From: a virus
DNA length: 33,152 nucleotides
UHGV virus genome: UHGV-0189815
Direction: 5' to 3' (one strand)
Below the pieces are notes generated by a model. That model ran no database searches and was not told where the DNA came from. It worked only from the letters and a program-made list of their open reading frames with translations. Below are positions 1 to 15,782 of this stretch, piece by piece (the stretch's first letter is position 1; each line of letters begins with the position of its first letter). The translations under genes were made by a program, and so were the position numbers.

Positions 1-747
1 GTGACCAAACTCAAACTTCTGGCACTTGGAGTGCTTATCGCAACGTCTGCAGGCGTAGCGCACGCTGAAGGTAAATTTTCCCTGGGCGCAGGCGTAGGTG
101 TCGTTGAACACCCATATAAAGATTACGATACCGATGTTTACCCAGTACCGGTAATCAACTATGAAGGCGATAACTTCTGGTTCCGTGGCTTAGGTGGTGG
201 TTACTACCTGTGGAATGACGCAACGGATAAACTTTCAATTACCGCTTACTGGTCGCCGCTTTACTTCAAAGCGAAAGACAGTGGCGATCACCAAATGCGT
301 CACCTGGATGACCGTAAGAGCACCATGATGGCTGGTCTGTCTTATGCTCACTTTACCCAGTACGGTTACCTGCGTACCACCCTGGCTGGCGATACCCTGG
401 ATAACAGCAACGGCATTGTCTGGGATATGGCCTGGTTGTATCGTTACACCAACGGTGGCCTGACCGTGACTCCGGGTATTGGTGTGCAGTGGAACAGCGA
501 AAACCAGAACGAATACTATTATGGCGTATCGCGCAAAGAGTCCGCTCGCAGCGGTCTGCGTGGCTATAACCCGAACGACAGCTGGAGCCCTTACCTGGAG
601 CTGAGCGCCAGCTACAACTTCCTCGGCGACTGGAGTGTTTACGGTACCGCGCGCTATACCCGTCTGTCTGATGAAGTTACTGACAGCCCGATGGTGGATA
701 AATCCTGGACTGGCCTGATTTCTACCGGGATCACCTACAAATTCTGA
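1..747 (+). CDS. mipA: MipA/OmpV-family outer-membrane protein (MltA-interacting protein); host flank
   Basis: 248-aa ORF with N-terminal signal peptide (MTKLKLLALGVLIATSAGVAHA) and a beta-rich, aromatic C-terminus ending ...TGITYKF typical of outer-membrane barrels; I recognise the sequence as enterobacterial MipA. GTG start at window edge. Confidence 0.85.
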   Translation: MTKLKLLALGVLIATSAGVAHAEGKFSLGAGVGVVEHPYKDYDTDVYPVPVINYEGDNFWFRGLGGGYYLWNDATDKLSITAYWSPLYFKAKDSGDHQMRHLDDRKSTMMAGLSYAHFTQYGYLRTTLAGDTLDNSNGIVWDMAWLYRYTNGGLTVTPGIGVQWNSENQNEYYYGVSRKESARSGLRGYNPNDSWSPYLELSASYNFLGDWSVYGTARYTRLSDEVTDSPMVDKSWTGLISTGITYKF

Positions 748-2058: not shown

Positions 2059-2337
2059 TTATTGGTTAATAGATTGTTTTGGCGAGCGAAGAGGGAAAAG
2101 CGCCGGATCGATTTGCCCGGATGATGCTGCGGTCTTATTTGTCATCATCCATAACGTATATTTATTGAATCTGGGGTTTCGGGTGATCTTCAATAAATCA
2201 ATATCAGGCAGCGTCATTATTATTTGCTGCCTGAATTGATACAGTGTCTTCTTCGAAATATCACAAAATATCGCGAATTCGCAGATAGTGAGATTTTCAG
2301 CATTAATTATCAAGAATAAGCGGTTACGCAAGGACAT
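2059..2337 (-). CDS. P2 C-type repressor paralog (int-proximal copy, 'C2')
   Basis: C-terminal segment NPRFNKYTLWMMTNKTAASSGQIDPAL closely matches the P2 C repressor motif (PQFTKYTLWFMTNQIAPESGQIAPAL). ORF track starts at 2364; the internal ATG at 2337 has a GAGGTG Shine-Dalgarno just upstream, so the shorter 92-aa form is preferred. Sits directly upstream of int, as C does in P2. Confidence 0.6.
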   Translation of the reverse strand: MSLRNRLFLIINAENLTICEFAIFCDISKKTLYQFRQQIIMTLPDIDLLKITRNPRFNKYTLWMMTNKTAASSGQIDPALFPLRSPKQSINQ

Positions 2338-2380
2338 ATACACCTCGATTGCTATTATTGGCATTCAGGGCGCAAATATA

Positions 2381-2398
2381 TTGTTCGCACACGAACAA
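2381..2398. promoter_or_regulatory. Perfect inverted repeat TTGTTCG-N4-CGAACAA in the promoter region upstream of the int-proximal repressor paralog
   Basis: 18-bp palindrome read directly from the sequence in the AT-rich intergenic region 2365..2518; candidate operator. Not a LexA-box consensus. Confidence 0.3.
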
Positions 2399-2518
2399 AT
2401 TTTAGCCAAAACTGCTTATCAGTAATTCATGTATGTAATAAATGGTAATTATCAATCAATATAAAATATATGTTGTATATTTTTTGTGTAATTTATTAAA
2501 AAGTAATATATCGCACAA

Positions 2519-2953
2519 TTAGAACAGATCTTTTACCAAAGCGATTATGACTCCTGCTGTAGCGAAAAGGGCAGAGCATAGCCATATCATTTGCTTATGT
2601 AATCCCTTTGCAAGATCTTCCCTGGTTGCGGACCTGGACTCTTTGAGTTCGCCGCTAATCTGTGCCTTAAGCTCGCGCATATCTCCGGTCATCTGCGCAC
2701 GGAGTTCTTTCATATCCCCAGTTATCTGCGCCTTGAGTTCACGCAGATCGCCCTTTGAGGCGAAGTCATCAGCGCGCGCGTTGAGATGGGTAAGTTCTTT
2801 AACAATTACACCGGTATTGTCTTCCAGTTTTTCAACGCGTTTTATTAGGCTGTTCATGCCGTTGCCTCCGTCGTCACTACTGTTTGTGGACTCATTATTT
2901 ATGGGTACCTGACGTTCTCTTATATGATGAACATTATCCTTAGTCTGACTCAT
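2519..2953 (-). CDS. Tail-anchored coiled-coil membrane protein with tandem 11-residue repeats (moron gene; function unknown)
   Basis: 144-aa ORF with AAGGA Shine-Dalgarno 8 nt upstream; repeats GDLRELKAQIT/GDMKELRAQMT/GDMRELKAQIS (33-bp DNA period, about 2639..2752); single C-terminal hydrophobic helix (MIWLCSALFATAGVIIALV). Its start overlaps the stop of the upstream gene. Confidence 0.7.
   Translation of the reverse strand: MSQTKDNVHHIRERQVPINNESTNSSDDGGNGMNSLIKRVEKLEDNTGVIVKELTHLNARADDFASKGDLRELKAQITGDMKELRAQMTGDMRELKAQISGELKESRSATREDLAKGLHKQMIWLCSALFATAGVIIALVKDLF
2639..2752. repeat. About 3.5 tandem copies of a 33-bp coding repeat inside the coiled-coil gene
   Basis: Repeated 11-aa units in the translation correspond to near-identical 33-nt units in the DNA. 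Confidence 0.7.
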
Positions 2954-3389
2954 TTTTGCATTCCTTGCGATTCTCTTCTATCCATGCGACGACCGGGCGG
3001 GCGCGATAAATGCTGATATGCCCGCAGTTTGGGCAATTAATTTTATATTCGACATCGGCTAATCTTATTTTTGTATGAGTATTCACAAACACGGGCGTTA
3101 CATACCAGAGAGTATTATCAGCTGCGAATTTCTCCTGATCGATTTGCGATAAAGAGTCATAGTTTTCGGGAGTCTTTGCACCGTTATAAACTCCGTTTTC
3201 GGACATTGTTAATTTAGTAAATCCACATGATATGCAGAACTGAGCGGCGTTTTTTGACATCAAAAATTCAGCGAATAATTCAGGGGTAACTTGTTGTAGC
3301 CTTTTCATAAGTTCTGGTGATGGTTCTCCATAGCGGGAATTACGAGGTGGGCGTATTGGGGGTATAAATGTATCATTATCTTTTGACAT
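2940..3389 (-). CDS. Hypothetical protein with Cys-rich zinc-ribbon-like motifs (moron gene)
   Basis: 149-aa ORF with AAGGA Shine-Dalgarno upstream; CxxC (CISCG) and CPNCG motifs; AT-rich codon usage unlike the neighbouring phage genes; apparently co-transcribed downstream of the repressor. Confidence 0.65.
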   Translation of the reverse strand: MSKDNDTFIPPIRPPRNSRYGEPSPELMKRLQQVTPELFAEFLMSKNAAQFCISCGFTKLTMSENGVYNGAKTPENYDSLSQIDQEKFAADNTLWYVTPVFVNTHTKIRLADVEYKINCPNCGHISIYRARPVVAWIEENRKECKNESD

Positions 3390-3431: not shown

Positions 3432-3692
3432 TTAACCGGTCTTTTTCTCTTCTTTGGTAACTGGTGCTATCTGACCTGCTTCTGGTGCGGTGATGTCAGA
3501 CATCAGCCATAGCGTGTATTTTTGAAAGCGCGGGTGTTGGGCGATTTTAACCAAAGCACTACCACCAGGTTCATACCCCCCCGTTTCATATTTCCTAAGC
3601 GTATTTATAGATAAGTCAATAACTTCGCAAAACTCATTCTGACTAAGACCTTCGGCTGCTCTAATCGCTTTTAATTTTTCACCAAGTTTCAT
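3432..3692 (-). CDS. P2 C-type immunity repressor (switch-proximal copy)
   Basis: C-terminal HPRFQKYTLWLMSDITAPEAGQIAPV matches the P2 C repressor motif; transcribed divergently from the Cox-like gene. ORF track start 3707 is a TTG; the first ATG is at 3692; the true start is uncertain. Confidence 0.7.
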   Translation of the reverse strand: MKLGEKLKAIRAAEGLSQNEFCEVIDLSINTLRKYETGGYEPGGSALVKIAQHPRFQKYTLWLMSDITAPEAGQIAPVTKEEKKTG

Positions 3693-3700
3693 TTGACAGT

Positions 3701-3746
3701 AGTCCAATTAGACATTAAATTTCCCTTCATGCAGTCTAATTAGACT
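3701..3746. promoter_or_regulatory. Candidate operator pair in the lysis-lysogeny switch region
   Basis: Two 14-bp palindromic sites, agtccaattagaca (3701..3714) and agtctaattagact (3733..3746, perfect palindrome), spaced 32 bp apart between the divergent repressor and Cox-like genes. Confidence 0.45.
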
Positions 3747-5209: not shown

Positions 5210-5797
5210 ATGAATAATATAATGATTGACATTGAAACATTAGACAATAAACCAACTGCCGCAATTGTTTCTATTGCTGCCGCATTTTTCGATCCCCGAA
5301 CTGGCGAGATTGGGATGTCTATTTATATTCCCGTCAATGTTGCTGATGCTCAATACAAAGGGGCGACAATTGGTGCGGATACTGTTAAATGGTGGATGAA
5401 GCAAAATTTATGCGCAAGAGATGAGCTTGTATCTGATGCTGGCTTGCCTTTATCAGAGTCGCTCTATAAGTTGAACGATTTTTGTTGTTTTTGTGATGAT
5501 TCAGACAATTTAAAAATATGGGCGCGCGGCACTGATTTTGATTTACCAGTTATTTATCACTCAATGCGCCTGACAGGGATTCGTCCGGCCTGGAATTTCT
5601 GGAATGCTCGCGACGTTAGAACGGTTGCAGAAATCGCGCTGACAATATGCGGTCATTCATCAATGCGCGCGGTTCTGGAACATCCGCATCACGCAATGAA
5701 TGACGTTATTAACCAGATTGCCAGATTAAGCGACGATATCAAAAACATTTCTGCCGTTCGCGCGGAGAAGGTGAATCATGATTCGCCGGAAAAATGA
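5210..5797 (+). CDS. DEDD-family (DnaQ-like) 3'-5' exonuclease
   Basis: Exo I motif IDIETLD near the N-terminus and HHAMNDV (H-x4-D) near the C-terminus, as in DEDDh exonucleases; 195 aa. Confidence 0.7.
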   Translation: MNNIMIDIETLDNKPTAAIVSIAAAFFDPRTGEIGMSIYIPVNVADAQYKGATIGADTVKWWMKQNLCARDELVSDAGLPLSESLYKLNDFCCFCDDSDNLKIWARGTDFDLPVIYHSMRLTGIRPAWNFWNARDVRTVAEIALTICGHSSMRAVLEHPHHAMNDVINQIARLSDDIKNISAVRAEKVNHDSPEK

Positions 5798-5999
5798 TAA
5801 TTGCCCCGCCTGCGTTGTTGATCAGGCACACAATTTAATTAATGAATTCCGACAGGGTCGCCGCGATAAAGTGCGGCGGCTGGCGACTGGTTATCTGTCA
5901 ATTGCAATCGGCAGATGTTGGCGGTTACTGAGTAAAAACGACGGCCAGCAATGGACTTTATTAACTCACGAACGATATAACAAGGAATATAAAAAATGA
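5778..5999 (+). CDS. Hypothetical small protein with CxxC motif
   Basis: 73-aa ORF with AGGTGA Shine-Dalgarno; overlaps the exonuclease stop and abuts the dam start (translational coupling). Confidence 0.5.
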   Translation: MIRRKNDNCPACVVDQAHNLINEFRQGRRDKVRRLATGYLSIAIGRCWRLLSKNDGQQWTLLTHERYNKEYKK

Positions 6000-7012
6000 T
6001 CAGACCGTTTTTGAAGTGGGCAGGTGGAAAAACTCGCGCTTTGCCTGAGCTGCTGCCGCACTTGCCAAAGGGTTATTGTCTGATGGAACCATTTGTTGGC
6101 GGCGGTTCGGTATTTTTAAACACAAGTTATGATAAGTATGTTTTAGCTGATATTAATTCAGATCTGATAAATACGTATGAAAACGTGAAGCATCGCACTA
6201 ATCTATTTATTGACGTTGCACGGGAATTATTTAAAGAAGGTAATTCAAAAGAATATTATTTAAAGATTCGCAAAGAATTTAACGAACTAAATACAAGTTA
6301 CCACGAATGCGGTCGCCGCCCCTTATCACTGAGATTGTCGTTAATGCAGTCGGCGCGGTTTCTCTATTTGAATCGGCACGGTTATAACGGCGTTTGCCGC
6401 TATAACAATAAACTGGAATACAATGTTCCGTTTGGTCAACATAAGACAGCGCCGTATTTTCCCGAAGAGGAGATCCGGCGGTTTGCAGAAAAGGCGAATG
6501 ATACAAACGCAGTGTTTCTCAATCTTAATTTTGATGACACATTATCAATGCTGACATTCGGGCCTAATCTCGTTATTTACTGCGATCCGCCATATTTACC
6601 CGCCAGCGAAACCGCAGACTTTACCACGTATTACGGACAGAGATTTTCGCGGGACGATCACTGCCGCTTAGTTCAGAAATTATTAGAAATAAGTGCGCGT
6701 GGTGCTGCAAAAGTTGTTATTTCAAACAGCGACACACCCGCCGCGCGAGAAATATACGTGTCGTTTACATTTCAGGAAATTAATGTTCAACGGTCAGTCA
6801 GTGCCAATACCAGCAAACGCGCGACTGCAAAAGAAGTGATCGGATATATCCCACATTGTGAATATTGCGGGGGTCGTCTGATTACTGGCCGTCCGTGTAG
6901 TTGTGACACCCAACGCCGCACGGTTTGGGGTTGCCCTGATGGCGGCTGCGGAGCTTGTGACAGTGTCGATCTTTGTGCGAGCGCGGGGAGTGAATTCTAT
7001 GACCAGGACTAG
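5996..7012 (+). CDS. dam: DNA adenine (N6) methyltransferase, Dam family, with Cys-rich C-terminal extension
   Basis: N-terminal FLKWAGGK and FVGGGSVF (SAM-binding motif I) and catalytic DPPY motif (IYCDPPYLPA); about 60 extra C-terminal residues with nine Cys (CEYCGG...CSCD...CPDGGCGACD...C). Confidence 0.85.
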   Translation: MIRPFLKWAGGKTRALPELLPHLPKGYCLMEPFVGGGSVFLNTSYDKYVLADINSDLINTYENVKHRTNLFIDVARELFKEGNSKEYYLKIRKEFNELNTSYHECGRRPLSLRLSLMQSARFLYLNRHGYNGVCRYNNKLEYNVPFGQHKTAPYFPEEEIRRFAEKANDTNAVFLNLNFDDTLSMLTFGPNLVIYCDPPYLPASETADFTTYYGQRFSRDDHCRLVQKLLEISARGAAKVVISNSDTPAAREIYVSFTFQEINVQRSVSANTSKRATAKEVIGYIPHCEYCGGRLITGRPCSCDTQRRTVWGCPDGGCGACDSVDLCASAGSEFYDQD

Positions 7013-7634: not shown

Positions 7635-10142
7635 GTGGCTGGCGTCTATCAATTGACGCGCGGACGCTACGCCCCAACACCGCCGCCCCCGTTCCTGGGG
7701 AGCGGCGCAGACACTACACTGTATCCATACGCGTGGAACGCCCCGCGCGCAGCAATTAGCGTTGACCGGACGCCGAAACATGATCCGCAGGAGTTCGCCG
7801 CAGAATACGAATTCTGGCAGCGTGTAAAATCCACTTTTCAGCCATATCCGACATTCATCCGCCGCCGCATGATGGCGCGCGTTGAACGTTCTCACGAAAA
7901 GCAGGGGCGACACGTCGCGGCGCTGGCGCTGCGAGATATCGCCAGCCGCGAATTAATCCACATTTCCGCCGTTATGCAGCAGTATTCCATAAGCCCGCCC
8001 CGCAATGCTGGGCGGGTTTATGAAACGCCGTTTGTTGGCCTTGAGCCGCTCTATCACAATTTTGAACAACTCACCGATCTGATCCGTCGTTTCGACACAC
8101 TGCCTGATTATTCGCCGGAGGATGTTGAATTACTGGCGCAGGACGTCGCAATTTACGCAAACGCCACACTGGCAGAAATTGCCGCAGATTGTGAACACCT
8201 GGACGAAATCGAAACTGGCCGGCGGTTTTACGCTGAATTGAAAACGTTGGCTAACGTTTTTCACGTCACGGCGGCAAGGGCAAACAAAAAACGCTTGTTG
8301 CCCGACGAGCTGGCGGCAGCGATCAGCAAAATGATCGACGCGCGCTACTGGAACCGCAATTTACTGCGTTACGCCGTGCGCTGGCGGGAGCATTTGCGGA
8401 TCTCCCTGGGCGACGTGCGCCGCAGCGTGTCAACCTATTGTAGTAAAGAACGCGTGAATGCGTGGCGGGAGCGACGCGAGCGTAATCGCGACATCATGTC
8501 AAGACTGGAAATAGAAGACGTTGAATCAGGCGAGCGTTTTTCACTGCTGGAGCAGATAGAAAAAAGCGCGTCCAATCCAGCGATACGCCGCACCGAGCTT
8601 ATGACGCGAATCGGCGGTTTTGAGCGAGTAGCCAATGAGCAGGGATTTGTCGGCAGCTTTTTTACTATTACCGCGCCGTCAAAATATCACGCGTTTACCG
8701 CGTTTGGTCATCGTAATCCTAAGTGGCAAGGCGCTAGCCCGCGCGAGTCTCAAAAATACCTGAATACCATTTGGCAGCGTATCCGCGCCGAGCTGGCGCG
8801 CCAGGAAATCGGCGCTTTTGGCTTACGTGTAGCCGAGGCGCATCACGACGCAACGCCGCACTGGCACGGCCTGTTATTCACTCTGCCGGAGCATCAGGAG
8901 GCGCTACGCGACGTCATGCAGCGTTACGCAACAGCTGAGGACGCCGACGAATTAACGACGAAACACGGCATACAGCCGCGTTTCGATTTCAAACCGATTG
9001 ATCCCGAGCGGGGAACCGCTACGGGCTATATCGTCAAATACGTCTCTAAAAATATCGACGGTTACGCGCTGGATAATGAGCGCGACGACGAAAGCGGACG
9101 TCCACTGAAAGACACGGCGCAACATGCGACCGCGTGGGCGTCTACGTGGGGGATCAGGCAGTTCCAGTTTTTGGGCGGTGTGCCGGTGTCGGTGTACCGC
9201 GAACTGCGGAGGCTGGGGAATCAACAGGCCGCTGATCAGATTAATCCGCTGTTTGCCGAGATCCACGCCGCAGCGGACGCGGGGGATTGGGGCGGGTTTG
9301 TTAATCTCATGGGCGGACCGCTGGCAAAACGCGCGGATTTACCGTTGCGCACGTTTTATCAGGATAAACCGGAGCCTAACAGCTGGGGCGAATATCTGAC
9401 GGTTATCCGCGGTGTATTTATGCCGCTGATTAATATCCCGCCGGTAATAACCAGGTTGCGGGATTTTCGCATTGTTAAAAAATCGCCGGAGAGCGCGGAG
9501 CGCCCCGGTGATGGCTGTTCATCTTTTGACCTTAAGGGCGCGTCTGCGCCCGCTAGGACTTGTGTCAATAACTGTACGGAGCATGAAAAAACAGCAAAAG
9601 ATGAACAAAATATAAACAGTGAAGCGGACTTTTTGGGAGAGAAAAACAGCGGTGCGCCGCCACCGGGAGATCCCGAACAGGTTCTGATCGGCAAATTGAC
9701 ACGGGAACAACGCAAACGCCTGCGCGCTGAGTGTCTGACGCACAAAAAACAGCGTAAACAATCGGCTGCTGACGAGTTCGAAGCGCTGGCGAATCAATTA
9801 GCGACGGCGGACTGTTCGGGCGCGGACCAGCTGCGCGCAGAAAATTATTTACGTGCGGCGGCGGTCATTCGCGAGACTGAAAAACCGGTCACGGCTGCAG
9901 CGGCAGAACTGGCCGCGCGCGTCATGGAGTGGGCGAAATTGCGCAAAATACCGCTGGGCCGCGCGCAATCGCTGGCACTGGCGCAAGGCGGACAGGCGAC
10001 AGTTATTGACAACGTTTACCGGGCTAACATGAACACCGGCGAACTGATCCTGATTGACACGTTCCAGCCGTGGCGGCGTGTGCTGGCGAAAAAACAAACT
10101 GTGGAACTGATGGCGCGCTGGCGGGCTGTGGTAACCGTATGA
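7635..10142 (+). CDS. Rolling-circle replication initiator (P2 gpA-like HUH endonuclease)
   Basis: Aligns with my memory of P2 gpA: YAWNAPR, FTITAPSKYH, HUH-type TPHWHGLLF, catalytic Tyr pair GYIVKYVSKNIDGYALD, GRPLKDTA...TAWASTW. ORF-track start is TTG 7578; by alignment to the P2 gpA N-terminus the likely start is GTG 7635 (or TTG 7650). Confidence 0.85.
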   Translation: MAGVYQLTRGRYAPTPPPPFLGSGADTTLYPYAWNAPRAAISVDRTPKHDPQEFAAEYEFWQRVKSTFQPYPTFIRRRMMARVERSHEKQGRHVAALALRDIASRELIHISAVMQQYSISPPRNAGRVYETPFVGLEPLYHNFEQLTDLIRRFDTLPDYSPEDVELLAQDVAIYANATLAEIAADCEHLDEIETGRRFYAELKTLANVFHVTAARANKKRLLPDELAAAISKMIDARYWNRNLLRYAVRWREHLRISLGDVRRSVSTYCSKERVNAWRERRERNRDIMSRLEIEDVESGERFSLLEQIEKSASNPAIRRTELMTRIGGFERVANEQGFVGSFFTITAPSKYHAFTAFGHRNPKWQGASPRESQKYLNTIWQRIRAELARQEIGAFGLRVAEAHHDATPHWHGLLFTLPEHQEALRDVMQRYATAEDADELTTKHGIQPRFDFKPIDPERGTATGYIVKYVSKNIDGYALDNERDDESGRPLKDTAQHATAWASTWGIRQFQFLGGVPVSVYRELRRLGNQQAADQINPLFAEIHAAADAGDWGGFVNLMGGPLAKRADLPLRTFYQDKPEPNSWGEYLTVIRGVFMPLINIPPVITRLRDFRIVKKSPESAERPGDGCSSFDLKGASAPARTCVNNCTEHEKTAKDEQNINSEADFLGEKNSGAPPPGDPEQVLIGKLTREQRKRLRAECLTHKKQRKQSAADEFEALANQLATADCSGADQLRAENYLRAAAVIRETEKPVTAAAAELAARVMEWAKLRKIPLGRAQSLALAQGGQATVIDNVYRANMNTGELILIDTFQPWRRVLAKKQTVELMARWRAVVTV

Positions 10143-10312
10143 ATGTTAATGTTATTTTAGGAGAGAAGTTATAGGCGATTTACTCAAGCAGATTTGGTAA
10201 TATCAGCGGAATTGATGCATGGTTTATTATTGTCAGCAATGGAAGGTATATTATTAATTTAGGCTTATATTTGTTCTGCAAGTATAAAATATAAAATGGC
10301 TTGAGGTAAAAT

Positions 10313-11635
10313 ATGTACGCTGAGTTAAATGAATTTATAAATGCTCTAGATAAATTAAAAGATTATTTTGATGAGTCTGAAAAATCATATGGGCATAAAA
10401 ATAAATGGCTTATAGAAGCATTTGGCATCGGTCATCCTGTAATGTTGCCAAAAGACTTTTCTGACTATATTGAAAGAATGATCGAGAAGTCAAAAAAATT
10501 AGAGATGCTTAAATTAACTGATTTCGAACTAGATGAACTCGACTATGTAAGAAAAGTCGTAACAAAGGTACATTCTGACCTTGCTCCTAGCTTTTATAAT
10601 GGAAATGGTGTACAAGCGATTCCTTCATTTTTAATGACCATGACATATATATCTTCATTTTTAGATTCTTTGATTTCCTTCGACCGACTCCAGGATACGG
10701 ATGCCGTACCTCAGAAATTAGCACGTAAAATACGGAGTATGGATGCAAGAGTAAGACAAGCTACTCCAGAAATTGAAACACTGGAAGGTAAAATTAAATT
10801 GATTAACGATGCATATGCCGCAGCTGATAATCTACCGGTATATATGGAAGAGTTAAATAAATACAAGGCAGAATTAACGGAAATAAAAGAGTACATTTTA
10901 AAGGCAAAAGAAGAAGCATCTCATTCGAATGTCTTAATGGATGTTTGTCTAAACGAAGGGGAAAAGATAAAAGAAGAGTTAAATGCAAAAAAAGAGATCG
11001 CAGAAAATTATCTTTCGAAATGTGAGGAAGCTATTCGTGCTTCGACTTCAAAAGGGTTAGCGGGAGCTTTTGAGATCAAAGCGAATAAGTTAAACTGTAG
11101 CATTCGTTTATGGGTAGCAGGATTATCTGCGGCATTAATTGCCGGTGGGTTTGTTGGTTATGAAAGGTTAAAAGCATTATCCAATGTTTTAGCGCAACCA
11201 GATACCAGTGCAATAGTGATTGCAACGCAATTAATACTATCCATATTTAGTATCGGCGCGCCGCTTTGGTTTGCGTGGTTGTCTACAAAGCAAATTAATC
11301 AAAGATTTAAGCTAGCAGAAGATTATGCCTTTAAGTCTGCCGTTGCAAAAGCATATGAGGGTTACAGAAAAGAAGCATCGCAACTTGATGATGGAACATT
11401 CGCTACTCGGTTGTTTGATTCTGCTTTAACCCGTCTAGAGGAAGCCCCATTAAGATTTGTCCAAGGTGATGATCACTCAACACCATGGATGGAAATGTTA
11501 AACTCTAAAGCTTTTTCTAAATTTCTTGATTCTTCGATTGATAATGTAAACTATGTTAAAAATATCCTTGATCGTAAGGCTAAACCCTCTGTAGTTGCAG
11601 ATAAGCCACAGCAGATGGAAAAGGGGACTGAATAA
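10313..11635 (+). CDS. AT-rich moron: 440-aa coiled-coil protein with two central transmembrane helices; unknown function (candidate defence/exclusion factor)
   Basis: Complete ORF with GAGG Shine-Dalgarno, AT-rich upstream region (10143..10312) and its own terminator; visibly more AT-rich than flanking phage genes; long N-terminal helical region rich in E/K, hydrophobic segments LWVAGLSAALIAGGFVGY and IVIATQLILSIFSIGAPLWFAWL, about 130-aa C-terminal domain. No P-loop or other catalytic motif seen. Confidence 0.8.
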   Translation: MYAELNEFINALDKLKDYFDESEKSYGHKNKWLIEAFGIGHPVMLPKDFSDYIERMIEKSKKLEMLKLTDFELDELDYVRKVVTKVHSDLAPSFYNGNGVQAIPSFLMTMTYISSFLDSLISFDRLQDTDAVPQKLARKIRSMDARVRQATPEIETLEGKIKLINDAYAAADNLPVYMEELNKYKAELTEIKEYILKAKEEASHSNVLMDVCLNEGEKIKEELNAKKEIAENYLSKCEEAIRASTSKGLAGAFEIKANKLNCSIRLWVAGLSAALIAGGFVGYERLKALSNVLAQPDTSAIVIATQLILSIFSIGAPLWFAWLSTKQINQRFKLAEDYAFKSAVAKAYEGYRKEASQLDDGTFATRLFDSALTRLEEAPLRFVQGDDHSTPWMEMLNSKAFSKFLDSSIDNVNYVKNILDRKAKPSVVADKPQQMEKGTE

Positions 11636-11640
11636 GATAA

Positions 11641-11668
11641 TGGGCAGTTCAAATCTGCCCTTTTTTTA
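11641..11668. terminator. Rho-independent terminator after the moron (between convergent genes)
   Basis: Hairpin gggcag-ttcaaatc-ctgccc followed by ttttttt. Confidence 0.65.
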
Positions 11669-11980
11669 GCTTGGTAACAACAGGTATAATGTTTTTTGTT
11701 TTTGTTCTGGCGACATCATATCGATCAGCGTTTTGATAGCGCGGTCAGATGAAAGCGCGCTGGGGCTTAATGTGTGAGAAAATGTTATATTAACGACGAA
11801 AGTATGACCGCACTCAACGTTATTACAGGCGCAATAAACATCTGATAGATGGGGATGTTTCCGCACGGTCTTTTTGATCGTTGAATTGCCGTTGCATTCC
11901 GGACAGATAATTTTCGGGCTGCGCAATTTGTTTCCCCTTAATCTATTTTTGAGCGGGGTATATTTTAACCGTTTAGCCAT
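11666..11980 (-). CDS. Ogr/Delta-family zinc-finger late-gene transcriptional activator (putative)
   Basis: CPECNG...YCACNNVECGHTF matches the Ogr/Delta zinc-finger pattern (CP.C ... C.N..C...F; P2 Ogr has HQCQNVNCSATF). 104 aa, longer than P2 Ogr; start overlaps the portal stop (TAATG). Confidence 0.55.
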   Translation of the reverse strand: MAKRLKYTPLKNRLRGNKLRSPKIICPECNGNSTIKKTVRKHPHLSDVYCACNNVECGHTFVVNITFSHTLSPSALSSDRAIKTLIDMMSPEQKQKTLYLLLPS

Positions 11981-13014
11981 TATTTTTCATCCTCTATCGC
12001 TTTCGGTTTTTTGAATAACACCTGCATTGCGCGGGTAATTTCAGAATCACTATTGATTGCATTCTCAATTAGCGCCTGCATGGGCCAGACTTCATCTAAT
12101 TGATATACGGCACGGACTTTTAACGGGTCGCCCAGTCCGCCCACGTTATCCGGAATAATGCCCGCAAGGCCAGGCGGGAAGCGATGGGCGGTTAACTGGT
12201 CCTGTGCGGATATGCGCTTGATATTCACATATTCATCTTTTGTTGCGACATCACCCACAGGGATAATTTTAACGCCGTCTGGTTTACCGTTGGGGATGTT
12301 AATAAACATACTGCGGAAATTACCCGCGCCTTTTGACTGTTCTATTTTTTCAGAAATGGCCTTTTCCATTTCTGGTGATAAATCCGGATCGGTGGCATAC
12401 AGGATATAACCTAAATGCGCCCCATTACGATAATATTTGCGGCGAAACATGGTCGCGTCACTATTTAACATCGCCGACTGGATGCCGCCTAAATAATCCG
12501 GTTTTCCGTAAATCTGCTGCAACGTATCGTACTGACGGATAAAAATAATATCTTTTGCGGCATATTCTTTATATTCGCCGTCGCGTAACAATAATTTTGT
12601 TTTGCCGTCAGTGGAACGCCGCACATAAACAGACGGCAGCGGGTACAGGCGCACGACCTGCCCGAAGCCGTTGCGGATCTTTAACAGCGCCACGTCACCG
12701 AACGTCACGAAGTTAACGGCCAGCGCCAGGGCGGTTTCAGGCGTCAGACCGCCGCCGCGAAGAAAACCCGCCGCGACCATTTTCGCGCGCGCCCCCAGAC
12801 ATGCGCCGTGGTACGTTGCGATGTCGGGCAATTTTGCCAGCGCTTCCCGGTCAATGGGCGGCGTCCAGTAGCCGTCTCCTTCATCTGTTACGCCATCATA
12901 TGAACCCAGGCACGGCACGCGCTCGGCGTCGCCGAATTCCACGCTAAAAGACATCTGTTTTTGAATAGCTGGCGCGAGGGCCGGGGCTGGTTGTTGTTTT
13001 TTACGTTTTGCCAT
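11980..13014 (-). CDS. Portal protein (P2 gpQ-like)
   Basis: 344 aa, the size I recall for P2 gpQ; lies immediately downstream of the terminase large subunit, divergent from the scaffold/capsid genes, as in the P2 Q-P arrangement. Confidence 0.75.
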   Translation of the reverse strand: MAKRKKQQPAPALAPAIQKQMSFSVEFGDAERVPCLGSYDGVTDEGDGYWTPPIDREALAKLPDIATYHGACLGARAKMVAAGFLRGGGLTPETALALAVNFVTFGDVALLKIRNGFGQVVRLYPLPSVYVRRSTDGKTKLLLRDGEYKEYAAKDIIFIRQYDTLQQIYGKPDYLGGIQSAMLNSDATMFRRKYYRNGAHLGYILYATDPDLSPEMEKAISEKIEQSKGAGNFRSMFINIPNGKPDGVKIIPVGDVATKDEYVNIKRISAQDQLTAHRFPPGLAGIIPDNVGGLGDPLKVRAVYQLDEVWPMQALIENAINSDSEITRAMQVLFKKPKAIEDEK

Positions 13015-14784
13015 TTATACGGCCCATGTTGATTTACGTTTATTTTTCCAGTTCAACGGCTCATTAAAGAGCGCGTGAGCGATTGCAAAGAAAACATCGG
13101 CGTGACCGTGCTCTGCGCTGCGGTCTGCAATGAACGTCAGGTTGTCGCCGCTCTGCGTGGTCGCCTTTTTGACGCTCATAAATGACGCTGCAATGTCCTT
13201 TTCCTGGGCGTCCCATTCGATCCGCTGGTTTTCGATGACGTCTATCATTTTCAGTACAAGCTGGGTTTTTGTTTCGACGTTGTAGCGGATTGCCACTGCC
13301 TGGCGGCGGGCGAAGTTCTGGATCAGTTCAAACACGCCGTAGCCGATGCCGGTCACGTCAACGCCGATAAACGTCATATTGAACTGCCTGAACAGCTTTT
13401 CTATCTGGTCCGCCATGTACTGAAACGACAAACCGCGCCAGTGGTACTTTTCCAGAACGCGGAACATTTCGGCCAGGGTGGATGGAATGGCAACAATGAC
13501 AAACGTTGCGTTGTCGCCGGTTCGCGCCGGGTCGAACCCGCCCCACACTTCCCCGTTATACGGGCACGCGCTGTTGGGGTGGTAATCCTTCCATTTGCTG
13601 GTTTCCACACCGCAGCGCACCACGTCGGAAAACCTGAACACGCTGTTTTTGTCGTCCACAAACTGGCACATAAACAGCATGGCAAAAGCGGTTTCACTGT
13701 AGCGATCGCGCAAGTCGTCAATGTTGGCCAGATTGAAGCCGCCCGCGATCGCATCTTCCAGGGTGATGACGTACCGCCATTGTTTATCCGGGCAAAGTCG
13801 CCCGCCGTCGCGCATTTCGTCAAACGTCGGGAAGACTGCCGCCCGGCGCTTTTTATTGCCGCCTTTCCATGTTTCACCGGTCCAGAACGGGTAAGCCTCA
13901 TGCGTTTTAGCGGACGGTGTGGAAAAGTACGTTAAACGCCATCTGTCATGGGTCGCCATCGCTGACGCAACGTCATTAAGGCGATTAAATTTCGGTATCC
14001 AGAAATATTCATCAATATAAACGTGACCTGAATTCGACTGCGCGGTGTTGCTGTTGGTCGCCAGAAAATGCAGTTCTGCGATGCCGTGCGCGGTGTTCAG
14101 TTTGATCGGGTTGCCTTTCAGCGTAACGCCGAATTCCTGCAAAGCGATATTGACGATGTATGACCGGAAAACCTCAGACTGGCGCTTACTGGCGGATAAG
14201 AAAATTTGAGGGTCGCCGGTCAGCGTCGCGTTTTCGAACGCTTCAAATGCAAAATAGTATGTCGCGCCGATCTGACGGCTTTTAAGGATATTGCGGATCT
14301 TCTGGCTTAAGTTCTCATGCAGTCGCTGCTGGTAGCCGAACAGGGTAGAAATAAAGTGTTCAAAGTCCGCTGCGGTCAGGTGGCTGACGTCGTTTGCCCG
14401 CCGCTTCTTCTGACGTGGGTTGTCGCAGTCATCTGCGGCGGCTGCGCGCGGTGTGTTGCCGGGTCCGCGAGCGTCTATTTCCGCCATCCTTTCAGCGTGC
14501 TTATTTCTGGATGTCAGCAGTTTGACGTGATGGCCGATCAGGCGGTCCAGTTCGTCCAGTTCTCCAGGTGTTTTCTTTTCCCGGTCAGTCAGCAGGGCAA
14601 TGCGGCGCGCGATCGCGTCTTCAATGTTTACGACCTTCATCTGGTCGCGCCATTCACCCACATCAGCCCAGTGATAAATGATCCGCGCAGATGGCAGATT
14701 TAACTGGGCGGCGATTTCTTTCGGGGTGAGTCCCTTTAAATAAAGGGCTTTCGCCATTCCCCTTAATTCGTCTGAATATTTCAT
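13015..14784 (-). CDS. Terminase large (ATPase) subunit (P2 gpP-like)
   Basis: 589 aa; N-terminal helix-turn-helix-like segment (LYLKGLTPKEIAAQLNLPSARIIYHWA), deviant Walker-A-like KSRQIGATYYFA, acidic nuclease-type motifs; size and position match P2 gpP. Confidence 0.85.
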   Translation of the reverse strand: MKYSDELRGMAKALYLKGLTPKEIAAQLNLPSARIIYHWADVGEWRDQMKVVNIEDAIARRIALLTDREKKTPGELDELDRLIGHHVKLLTSRNKHAERMAEIDARGPGNTPRAAAADDCDNPRQKKRRANDVSHLTAADFEHFISTLFGYQQRLHENLSQKIRNILKSRQIGATYYFAFEAFENATLTGDPQIFLSASKRQSEVFRSYIVNIALQEFGVTLKGNPIKLNTAHGIAELHFLATNSNTAQSNSGHVYIDEYFWIPKFNRLNDVASAMATHDRWRLTYFSTPSAKTHEAYPFWTGETWKGGNKKRRAAVFPTFDEMRDGGRLCPDKQWRYVITLEDAIAGGFNLANIDDLRDRYSETAFAMLFMCQFVDDKNSVFRFSDVVRCGVETSKWKDYHPNSACPYNGEVWGGFDPARTGDNATFVIVAIPSTLAEMFRVLEKYHWRGLSFQYMADQIEKLFRQFNMTFIGVDVTGIGYGVFELIQNFARRQAVAIRYNVETKTQLVLKMIDVIENQRIEWDAQEKDIAASFMSVKKATTQSGDNLTFIADRSAEHGHADVFFAIAHALFNEPLNWKNKRKSTWAV

Positions 14785-14936
14785 GAGGGGATTTTTGCAT
14801 TTAAAAAACGTCGGGTATCCGGTCTATATTCGCTTTAATTCTGATAACGGCTTATATCCGAAATAGTCAGAAATTAACGGCATGAAAATAAAACGGCTGG
14901 GTGTTTTACTTTACTTTATCGAAATGAGGGTAACTT
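14785..14936. promoter_or_regulatory. Divergent late-promoter region between the terminase operon and the scaffold/capsid operon
   Basis: 152-bp AT-rich intergenic region between divergently transcribed late operons; by analogy with P2 P_P/P_O. Individual promoter elements not resolved. Confidence 0.4.
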
Positions 14937-15782
14937 ATGAAACAAACACCCACCGCGTGGTTTTGTGTTGCCACTGCTGGCCCGACTGTAGACGGGCGGG
15001 AAATAAAAGAACAATGGCTGACGGAAGCTGCGGAAACTTATAACGCGGCGGAGTATACGGCCATGATTTGGCCGTCAAGCGTTGACCGCCATCAAAAATG
15101 GTACAACCTCGGCACTGTTCATAGTGTTAAGTGCGAAACGGTTAACGGCAAAGTTAAGTTATATGCGCGTTTCTTGCCTAATAAATGGATGATGTCGTTA
15201 AACCGTGATGATCAGCAAAAGCTATTTCCATCAGTAGAAATTCTGGAAAATTTCGCCAGTACCGGAAAGCATTACCTTGCGGGGATTGCCGTTACCGATT
15301 TGCCCGCCAGTACCGGGACCGATCGTCTCGAATTTTCCGGCGCGCCGAATGTTATCAGTTTTTGCAGTGGCGAACCGATGACCGAAGTTGCAGACAAAGA
15401 ATCTTTTTTAACCCGCCTGTTTTCGCGTCTGCCGCAGTCACCTGAACAGGGCGCGCGCGATCCAGACAATAACCAGGAAGACGACAAAATGAATGAACAG
15501 CAATTCACGCAATTAATGAGCGTGTTTAATACCGCTGTGGAAAAAATGGGGACCGCCGTAGATGAAATTAAATCATTCAGCGCAAAACAAAACACGACTG
15601 TTATTGAAAATAATCAAAACGGTCTGGAAGGCGATCAGCCGCAAGTCGTGACCGTGGAGCAATTCACCGCGCTTGATGGCAAGGTTGATCAGCTACTTCA
15701 AAAATTTACTGCGCTGTCTGGTGAAGCGACGGAACAGCCGAACGGCGAACCTGCGCAGGGCGTGCCGGAATATCTGGTGTAA
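14937..15782 (+). CDS. Capsid scaffolding protein (P2 gpO-like)
   Basis: N-terminal similarity to P2 gpO (VATAGPTVDGREI ... ILENFASTGKHYLAGIAVTDLPASTGTDRLEF vs P2 FANTGKCYLVGLAVTDDPASLGTEYLEF); 281 aa. Confidence 0.85.
   Translation: MKQTPTAWFCVATAGPTVDGREIKEQWLTEAAETYNAAEYTAMIWPSSVDRHQKWYNLGTVHSVKCETVNGKVKLYARFLPNKWMMSLNRDDQQKLFPSVEILENFASTGKHYLAGIAVTDLPASTGTDRLEFSGAPNVISFCSGEPMTEVADKESFLTRLFSRLPQSPEQGARDPDNNQEDDKMNEQQFTQLMSVFNTAVEKMGTAVDEIKSFSAKQNTTVIENNQNGLEGDQPQVVTVEQFTALDGKVDQLLQKFTALSGEATEQPNGEPAQGVPEYLV

Follow-up and report, generated by a model that had tools for sequence, protein, structure and literature searches.

The window, which is the whole 33,152-nucleotide stretch of UHGV virus genome UHGV-0189815, holds a P2/HP1-mosaic Escherichia coli prophage that carries a mobile single-gene accessory, or moron, in the gpA-gpQ hotspot between its replication and packaging genes. 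The accessory is an open reading frame (ORF) on the plus strand at 10313-11635, which starts with ATG and encodes a 440-amino-acid (aa) member of PHROG 34659, part of an unnamed superfamily. Upstream of the ORF, the replication gene A (Phage_GPA, PF05840, E 6e-98) ends at 10142 and is followed by 170 bp of AT-rich spacer (10143-10312, plus strand, GC 29.4%). A GAGG Shine-Dalgarno sequence at 10303-10306 stands 6 nt ahead of the ATG, and an intrinsic terminator (GGGCAG-TTCAAAT-CTGCCC followed by seven T) with a 6-bp GC stem and a 7-nt loop lies on the same strand at 11642-11667. Both of these signals had been read in an earlier note on this DNA and were borne out. The T-run of the terminator touches the stop codon of a convergent gene on the minus strand (11666-11980), which encodes a 104-aa Ogr_Delta zinc-finger protein (PF04606, E 6e-13). 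Beyond this ogr gene come the portal gene (11980-13014, minus strand) and then the large terminase gene (13015-14784), which is also on the strand opposite to the ORF. The earlier note had placed the ORF between gene A and the packaging module, and this is correct, except that its immediate downstream neighbour is not the portal but the late activator of the ogr type, a backbone gene of the phage. No Rfam RNA was found in 9800-12200, no direct or inverted repeats were found flanking the ORF, and the P2 cos core had no match within the window.

A foreign and swappable cassette

The base composition of the ORF departs strongly from that of the genes around it, as the earlier note had proposed. 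Our composition check gave a GC content of 36% and a GC at third codon positions (GC3) of 28% for the ORF (36.2% and 27.9%), compared with 51-56% and 54-65% for its neighbours (gene A, 56.0% and 60%; portal, 50.7% and 54%; terminase, 53.1% and 65%). Consistently, positions 10001-11000 are among the two lowest-GC stretches of the window in a 500-nt profile. The same tendency is seen for relatives of the gene in other genomes, where the family gene lies a median of 6.8 GC points under its flanks across 73 loci and is more than 5 points lower in 48 of the 73. Such a median deficit is a mark of a frequently transferred gene.

The limits of the foreign segment are sharp. When window positions 8500-13500 were compared by blastn with two prophages of the same lineage (L097 and L098), homology ended at 10133 and returned at 11709-11712. 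These breaks delimit a swappable cargo cassette of ~1.58 kb on the plus strand (10134-11711) and assign ogr to the backbone. We considered whether ogr could be part of the cassette, and this was ruled out because ogr is kept in relatives that carry different cargo. The flanks of the relatives with other cargo are 94-95% identical to the window, and at the position of the cassette (6993-8278 in L097 and 6993-8279 in L098) they carry a reversed sfsB (ner-like) regulator instead. One of the two also has a 259-aa RiboL-PSP-HEPN protein at this site (HEPN Pfam E 1.1e-6), which is itself an uncharacterised defence-like cargo.

Together, the composition, the sharp homology breaks and the alternative cargo support the earlier proposal that the ORF is a horizontally acquired single-gene cargo at the variable gpA-gpQ site. 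The ORF lies between A and the portal gene with only ogr intervening, and the content of this interval varies among homologous prophages. The gpA-gpQ locus is the P2 defence hotspot as defined by Rousset et al. 2022 (Cell Host Microbe, PMC9122126), and Moura de Sousa et al. 2026 confirm the A-Q hotspot and describe a second hotspot within the tail genes (PMC13586616). The ORF resembles the known P2 hotspot cargo, old and tin, in occupying the same slot as a short, swappable and compositionally foreign cassette. It differs from them in that its product has no sequence or domain relationship to Old (an ATPase-TOPRIM protein) or Tin, and the locus departs from the P2 hotspot layout in having ogr between the cassette and the portal gene in this mosaic phage.

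In the prophage, replication and head genes of P2 type are joined to a tail module of HP1 type (DUF2586, Phage_HP1_Orf24). The prophage is integrated beside mipA (window 1-747) and has its ogr gene placed next to the portal gene. The assembly collection has 290 blocks that encode an identical protein. At each of the six places listed for it, the gene occupies the same position in the same prophage, five times beside mipA. Among 5,426 complete E. coli genomes, the ORF is present in a single one, strain N1420, at 97.5% nucleotide identity. The two prophages are closely similar on the left side (dam 97%, gene A 94-96%, cassette 97.5%) and much less so on the right (ogr 88%, portal 80%, terminase 79%, scaffold 72%). 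This drop in identity past the cassette, across 11669-15782, indicates a recombination junction at the right edge of the cassette, and thus that the same cargo has been joined to two different packaging modules.

A conserved membrane module behind a variable helical head

The ORF product contains two hydrophobic segments in Kyte-Doolittle hydropathy, at residues ~262-284 and 296-325, which make up a predicted transmembrane (TM) hairpin. Each cytoplasmic flank of the hairpin carries four lysine or arginine residues and the short loop carries two, and these basic flanks fit an N-in/C-in topology. The full-length AlphaFold2 (AF2) model is all-helical, with a mean predicted local distance difference test score (pLDDT) of 73 and a predicted template modelling score (pTM) of 0.34. 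In this model, a helix of ~120 residues (174-294) continues from the coiled coil into TM1, and the chain then crosses back in TM2 as a further helix (300-357). In addition, Phobius assigned two TM helices and no signal peptide to a paralogue listed in Rousset et al. 2022 (PMC9122126). Hydropathy, flank charges, the all-helical model and the Phobius result for the paralogue thus agree with the earlier description of a coiled-coil protein with two TM helices.

Conservation is distributed very unevenly along the chain. The first 125 residues (10313-10687; all protein regions lie on the plus strand) are modelled as a four-helix bundle with helices at 3-26, 46-65, 70-93 and 99-120, and the bundle modelled alone reaches a pLDDT of 91.7 and a pTM of 0.86. 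This N-domain is poorly conserved overall, with a mean identity to the query of 26%, yet it keeps the loop motifs HP(A/V)(L/M) around P42 and NGNGxQAIP at 96-104. The linker and coiled coil that follow (residues 126-235, 10688-11017) have a mean identity of 30% and contain a conserved stretch, KIKxINxAxxAAxxLP, at ~160-175, while the length of the coil differs between subfamilies by indels of ~22 residues. Conservation is far higher in the pre-TM helix (residues 236-262, 11018-11098; CEEAIRASTSKGLAGAFEIKA), where mean identity is 67% and where T245, G248, L249, A250 and F253 are invariant; this helix is conserved in a sister clade of the family as well. The TM hairpin (residues 263-322, 11099-11278) consists of TM1, a short loop and TM2, ends in GAPLWFAWLS and has a mean identity of 56%. 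The post-TM juxtamembrane helices (residues 323-381, 11279-11455; TKQIxQRFxLAEDYAFKxxVAKAYEGYRxEA...RLFDSALTRLEEAPLR) are the most conserved segment, with a mean identity of 76%, a column entropy of 0.56 bits and many invariant charged or aromatic residues. The C-terminal tail (residues 382-440, 11456-11632) is variable, with a mean identity of 33% and a pLDDT below 60. The invariant clusters are accordingly grouped around the membrane, with TSKGLAGAF before TM1 and GAPLWFAW, TKQIxQR, EDYxxK, KAYEGY, RLF and LTRLEEAPLR after TM2. Between the window and N1420 alleles there are 18 synonymous and 8 non-synonymous codon differences, and none of the 8 non-synonymous differences falls within residues 230-438.

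The protein belongs to a large and widespread family. It falls in PHROG 34659, a group of unknown function (E 5e-135), with a weaker match to PHROG 30912. A word-indexed search yielded 1,369 clusters at 90% identity, and an exhaustive one at least 415 clusters at 50% identity (E < 1e-30). Nearly all members are 420-465 aa long, and all are named 'hypothetical'. In a scan of one genome per species, 188 carriers were found with a patchy spread over phyla, including Gamma-, Beta- and Alphaproteobacteria, Bacteroidota, Leptospira, Verrucomicrobiota, Acidobacteriota and Nitrospirota. A profile alignment (hhalign probability 99.7%, E 8.5e-26) with the sister clade, from Vibrio, Photobacterium, Pasteurellaceae and Eikenella, shows homology across almost the full length of the protein (360 aligned columns). 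The clade retains the core signature of AG[AS]F, two TM helices, EDYAFK and A[YF]EGY[RK]. Table S5B of Rousset et al. 2022 (PMC9122126) includes a 431-aa E. coli paralogue subfamily as system #102, with the description '2 TM', no Pfam and 32 occurrences. The earlier note's remark that the protein could not be matched to any family therefore holds for Pfam, NCBIfam, PADLOC and solved structures, and does not hold in view of PHROG 34659 and catalogue entry #102.

Our searches for remote homology returned coiled-coil similarity throughout. The library scans of Pfam, NCBIfam and PADLOC covered the query, 44 homologues, 10 longer or more divergent members and isolated N-domains, and the matches to FapA, EzrA, Syntaxin, SesA, SMC, ZorA and LmuB that they produced were rejected as coiled-coil noise. 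The best matches in PADLOC-DB v2.0.0, to LmuB and MTase_I (E 8e-4) and to ZorA (E 0.025), all lie inside the coiled coil. Sequence searches of the PDB with the single sequence and with a profile gave matches of the syntaxin, methyl-accepting chemotaxis protein and tropomyosin coil type, all at E >= 0.006, and these were also rejected. Foldseek comparison of the full model with the PDB and BFVD found nothing at E <= 0.001; the top matches were axonemal coiled coils and tape-measure proteins with template modelling scores up to ~0.3. The tape-measure matches in BFVD had E 0.007-0.04 and template modelling scores of 0.17-0.24 normalised to the query, and the PDB matches were all at E > 0.1. Clear homology to a phage structural or replication protein, which the earlier note had named as an outcome that would count against its interpretation, was looked for and only coiled-coil-level matches were found. 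The library, sequence and structure searches also found no nucleotide-binding or nuclease motif, in agreement with what had been noted from the sequence.

Literature searches by accession, motif string and keyword found no characterisation of the family, and its signature motifs are absent from two supplementary files of Vassallo et al. 2022 (PMC9519451). The family is thus catalogued but uncharacterised, and what we describe is a hotspot-borne candidate exclusion gene, not a new kind of system.

The N-terminal bundle may resemble, and we treat this as a lead only, the four-helix bundles of known cell-death executioners, namely the coiled-coil domains of the plant nucleotide-binding leucine-rich repeat receptors (NLRs) Rx, MLA13 and NRG1, the four-helix bundle of MLKL and HeLo-like domains. 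Profiles of Rx_N, SesA, HeLo and similar domains gave no match in 20 isolated N-domains at E <= 10. A HeLo-like homology suggested by SesA matches in 6 full-length members was dropped because these matches fall outside the N-domain. It would be a long shot that the bundle is a true counterpart of MLKL, plant coiled-coil NLR or HeLo domains. The protein would then be a 'necroptosis-like' single-chain executioner spread by phages, in which the bundle both detects infection and gates a conserved hairpin pore by way of the coiled-coil stalk, and the family would constitute a new partner-less class of membrane-acting abortive infection proteins, present in several phyla and absent from defence catalogues.

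Mobility and candidate roles

Relatives of the ORF occupy a variety of mobile and chromosomal positions. The 463-aa and 431-aa E. coli paralogues are found at the A-Q site of 186-like prophages, and a 433-aa paralogue sits between gpG (tail-fibre assembly) and the FI sheath gene, the interval that holds Z/fun on the P2 map and is the tail hotspot. This gpG-FI paralogue is split into fragments of 216 aa and 174 aa on more than 300 contigs each, and is intact on about as many contigs. The split copies come mostly from Shigella sonnei and E. coli clones, in which lineage-specific inactivation is possible. In P2-like prophages of Pantoea, the family gene adjoins the portal and terminase genes. A further homologue is present in the isolated lambdoid Providencia phage PSTCR8lys, and homologues are found on 17 plasmids, with hosts including Klebsiella, Vibrio, Xanthomonas, Agrobacterium and Paraburkholderia; on one Vibrio plasmid, the neighbours of the gene are recombinases and an Abi_2 protein. 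Other members are lone chromosomal inserts amid housekeeping genes, such as those beside recBCD in Luteimonas and beside fdhD in Aeromonas. An all-against-all BLAST of the four genes on either side at 78 species loci identified no conserved neighbour; at most 5 of the 78 loci share a neighbouring family, and that family consists of portal fragments. This indicates that the gene is a stand-alone unit.

Of the roles considered, the one we rank first, as a candidate with somewhat less than an even chance of being right, is phage exclusion on behalf of the lysogen, of the abortive-infection type and exerted by a one-protein sensor-effector. We favour it because no partner gene is conserved, because the family is spread over phage hotspots, plasmids and islets, and because a HEPN gene can take its place at this site. 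The described defence hotspot in which it lies, the patchy spread and lowered GC of the family, and the defence and mobility genes next to some members also speak for it. In addition, a variable head and coil attached to a near-invariant stalk and hairpin is the layout expected of a single-chain sensor-effector. The product would reside in the inner membrane, its two large ends facing the cytoplasm, and would need no dedicated partner. The fast-evolving four-helix bundle and the variable coil would detect an infection cue, either a phage product or a phage-induced state, and would mediate oligomerisation. The coil may pair between subunits, since it has no obvious intramolecular partner in the low-confidence full-length model. 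The conserved module of pre-TM helix, TM hairpin and post-TM helices (AGAF...EDYAFK...AYEGYR) would be the effector, which could perturb or permeabilise the inner membrane through a pore, a leak or depolarisation, and so lead to abortive infection or growth arrest.

The positions of the gene also bring to mind a second form of exclusion. Among the exclusion genes of P2 are tin and old, and Z/fun, the last of which blocks T5. The ORF encodes a prophage-borne membrane protein at the sites of such genes, with a paralogue exactly at the Z/fun position, and it could therefore act in superinfection exclusion, blocking entry of an incoming genome at the injection channel or a host factor while the cell survives. 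SieB-type proteins with two TM helices also appear in the same hotspot list (Rousset et al. 2022). However, the predicted periplasmic part of the ORF product is only ~12-15 residues, nearly all of its mass is cytoplasmic, and its variable cytoplasmic N-domain is better suited to intracellular sensing. Moreover, no exclusion family in Pfam or PADLOC, SieB, Imm and Sim included, shows homology to the product, and in a tblastn search of 50,697 phage records the only match was Providencia phage PSTCR8lys. On balance, we regard superinfection exclusion as quite unlikely.

The predicted effector module invites comparison with known membrane-acting systems. The two-TM effectors of cyclic-oligonucleotide-based antiphage signalling systems (CBASS; SLATT/S-2TM), of Pycsar (PycTM) and of retron Ec48 (2TM), together with Rst_2TM_1TM_TIR, are similar to the ORF product in combining a TM hairpin with cytoplasmic extensions. 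Such two-TM effectors are presumed to damage the inner membrane, and they are found on mobile elements and in P2/P4 hotspots. The CBASS, Pycsar and retron effectors rely on an adjacent partner enzyme or retron, whereas the ORF has no conserved neighbour, and unlike theirs, its hairpin lies towards the C-terminus and follows a helical N-terminal region of 260 residues. Consistently, the 78 loci gave no linkage to a nucleotide cyclase, a SLOG protein or a retron reverse transcriptase. SLATT/S-2TM Pfam models were not matched by the query at E <= 0.1, nor did they occur among the 25 commonest of the 177 families matched by the 44 members at E <= 1, a comparison that may miss weak matches present in fewer than 5 members, and a Foldseek match in BFVD to a SLATT protein had E 0.88 and a template modelling score of 0.15-0.20. 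Zorya ZorA shares a membrane anchor and a long cytoplasmic coiled coil with the ORF product, in addition to the weak PADLOC match within the coil. A relationship to ZorA was rejected as coiled-coil noise, and the ORF lacks the MotA-like four-TM core and ZorB, ZorC or ZorD partners.

Class II holins and pinholins are also alike in having two TM helices with a predicted N-in/C-in arrangement and a basic cytoplasmic stretch after TM2. Holins are smaller than about 150 aa and are encoded in the lysis cassette. The ORF product, at 440 aa and with a large cytoplasmic N-terminal part, has the wrong size for a holin, and its gene is in the wrong location, outside the lysis cassette; the prophage's own holin (PF04550) and M15 peptidase are encoded ~9 kb downstream. 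For these reasons, the product does not fit the definition of a holin. As a single mobile gene with a holin-like hairpin, the ORF could instead encode a selfish addiction or toxin-like membrane protein that aids retention of the element, that is, a latent pore-former restrained by its own N-domain or by a host factor and without a role in immunity. The truncated or split copies that are common in some lineages, including the 216-aa and 174-aa fragments described above, would fit a costly gene. However, most of these fragments stem from Shigella and E. coli clones that have been sampled heavily, and in the window's own cluster the majority of contigs carry the ORF intact. Furthermore, no antitoxin-like partner or small overlapping ORF is conserved, and we consider a selfish toxin very unlikely.

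Support for the defence or superinfection-exclusion role proposed in the earlier note is contextual, and several observations weigh against abortive-infection-type exclusion. No model in Pfam, NCBIfam or PADLOC beyond coiled-coil noise recognises the 440-aa protein, and the low full-length pTM makes the modelled arrangement of its domains unreliable. The earlier note had called the gene self-contained, and this holds for its translation and termination signals; for transcription initiation, a consensus scan found no sigma-70 promoter on the plus strand of the upstream spacer. Expression of the ORF in the lysogen is therefore no more than presumed. PADLOC-recognised defence genes (type I restriction-modification, Gabija, AbiEi, CapP and PbeA) are found within two genes on either side at ~12-14 of the 78 loci (~15%), a figure that is approximate because counts came per family and not per locus. 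Other neighbours include ParE, integrases, resolvases and transposases, and many of the 78 loci have ordinary metabolic or housekeeping neighbours. The association of the family with defence genes is thus modest at best, as judged without a matched baseline. In addition, the family signature motifs are absent from the tested-systems table of Rousset et al. 2022, and not all cargo of the P2 hotspots is defensive, as partition systems and cytolethal distending toxin occur there too (PMC9122126).

The presence of such cargo in the hotspots, and the many family members that stand alone amid housekeeping genes, would both be in keeping with an accessory function unrelated to defence. This function could lie in membrane stress, envelope remodelling, competition or immunity to the benefit of the host, or in the phage cycle itself, for example in the timing of lysis or in anchoring replication or assembly to the membrane. 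The scan that was used for promoters also found no terminator between gene A and the ORF, so the ORF may be co-transcribed with early lytic genes. Nevertheless, close prophages without the ORF carry the HEPN gene instead, which indicates that the ORF is not needed for the phage cycle. The patchy distribution of the family, its foreign composition in most hosts and its lack of conserved synteny also argue against a non-defence role. Such a role is in our view unlikely, though we give it more weight than superinfection exclusion or a selfish toxin.

If the ORF proves protective, a widespread single-gene membrane-acting family, comprising the clusters at 50% identity and the Vibrionaceae/Pasteurellaceae sister clade, would join the defence repertoire, and one unnamed entry in the catalogue of P2 hotspot systems would be explained. 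This family is currently invisible to PADLOC, Pfam and NCBIfam. Its size and breadth, its absence from the annotation libraries searched and its clean conservation split make it a good experimental target, and the contrast between a variable N-bundle and a near-invariant juxtamembrane and TM module offers a handle for dissecting sensor from effector. For a specialist, another hotspot candidate is solid and unsurprising. If the gene is not protective, it would serve as a reminder that a defence gene takes more than a TM hairpin and a place in a hotspot.

Spacer targeting and other features of the prophage

The prophage is targeted by spacers of E. coli type I-E clustered regularly interspaced short palindromic repeat (CRISPR) arrays. 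Nine distinct protospacers were identified, of which three lie in gene A (8124-8157, 9437-9470 and 9585-9621), five in the moron (10444-10476, 10817-10850, 11357-11390, 11546-11579 and 11605-11637) and one in the portal gene (12527-12561). Eight of the nine match at 100% and the remaining one, at 9585-9621, at 97.3%, and an AWG protospacer-adjacent motif (ATG or AAG) precedes all seven protospacers that were checked. The matching spacers are found in both the iap-side and the queE/ygcE-side loci of dozens of complete E. coli genomes, whereas the phage itself is present in only ~8 of 5,426. An enrichment of spacers in the moron was considered and rejected, as protospacers number ~3.3 per kb in the moron and, over the 3′ part of gene A, 2.4 per kb. 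This similar density indicates that the phage as a whole is targeted, and not the cargo gene.

Elsewhere in the window, three small ORFs of 101, 144 and 149 aa lie on the minus strand at 2059-3389, between the integrase gene (962-1954) and a CI-like helix-turn-helix gene (3432-3707), in a region with a low-GC patch at 2001-2500 (GC 0.36). As the N1420 relative has a WYL-domain protein and a membrane protein at the same place, 2059-3389 looks like a second variable cargo site. The early operon encodes an Rv2179c-like 3′-5′ exonuclease (5210-5797), a 73-aa ParE_like ORF (5778-5999) and a Dam-type methylase (5996-7012), the last of which has an extra Cys-rich C-terminal tail of ~55 residues outside the methylase domain.

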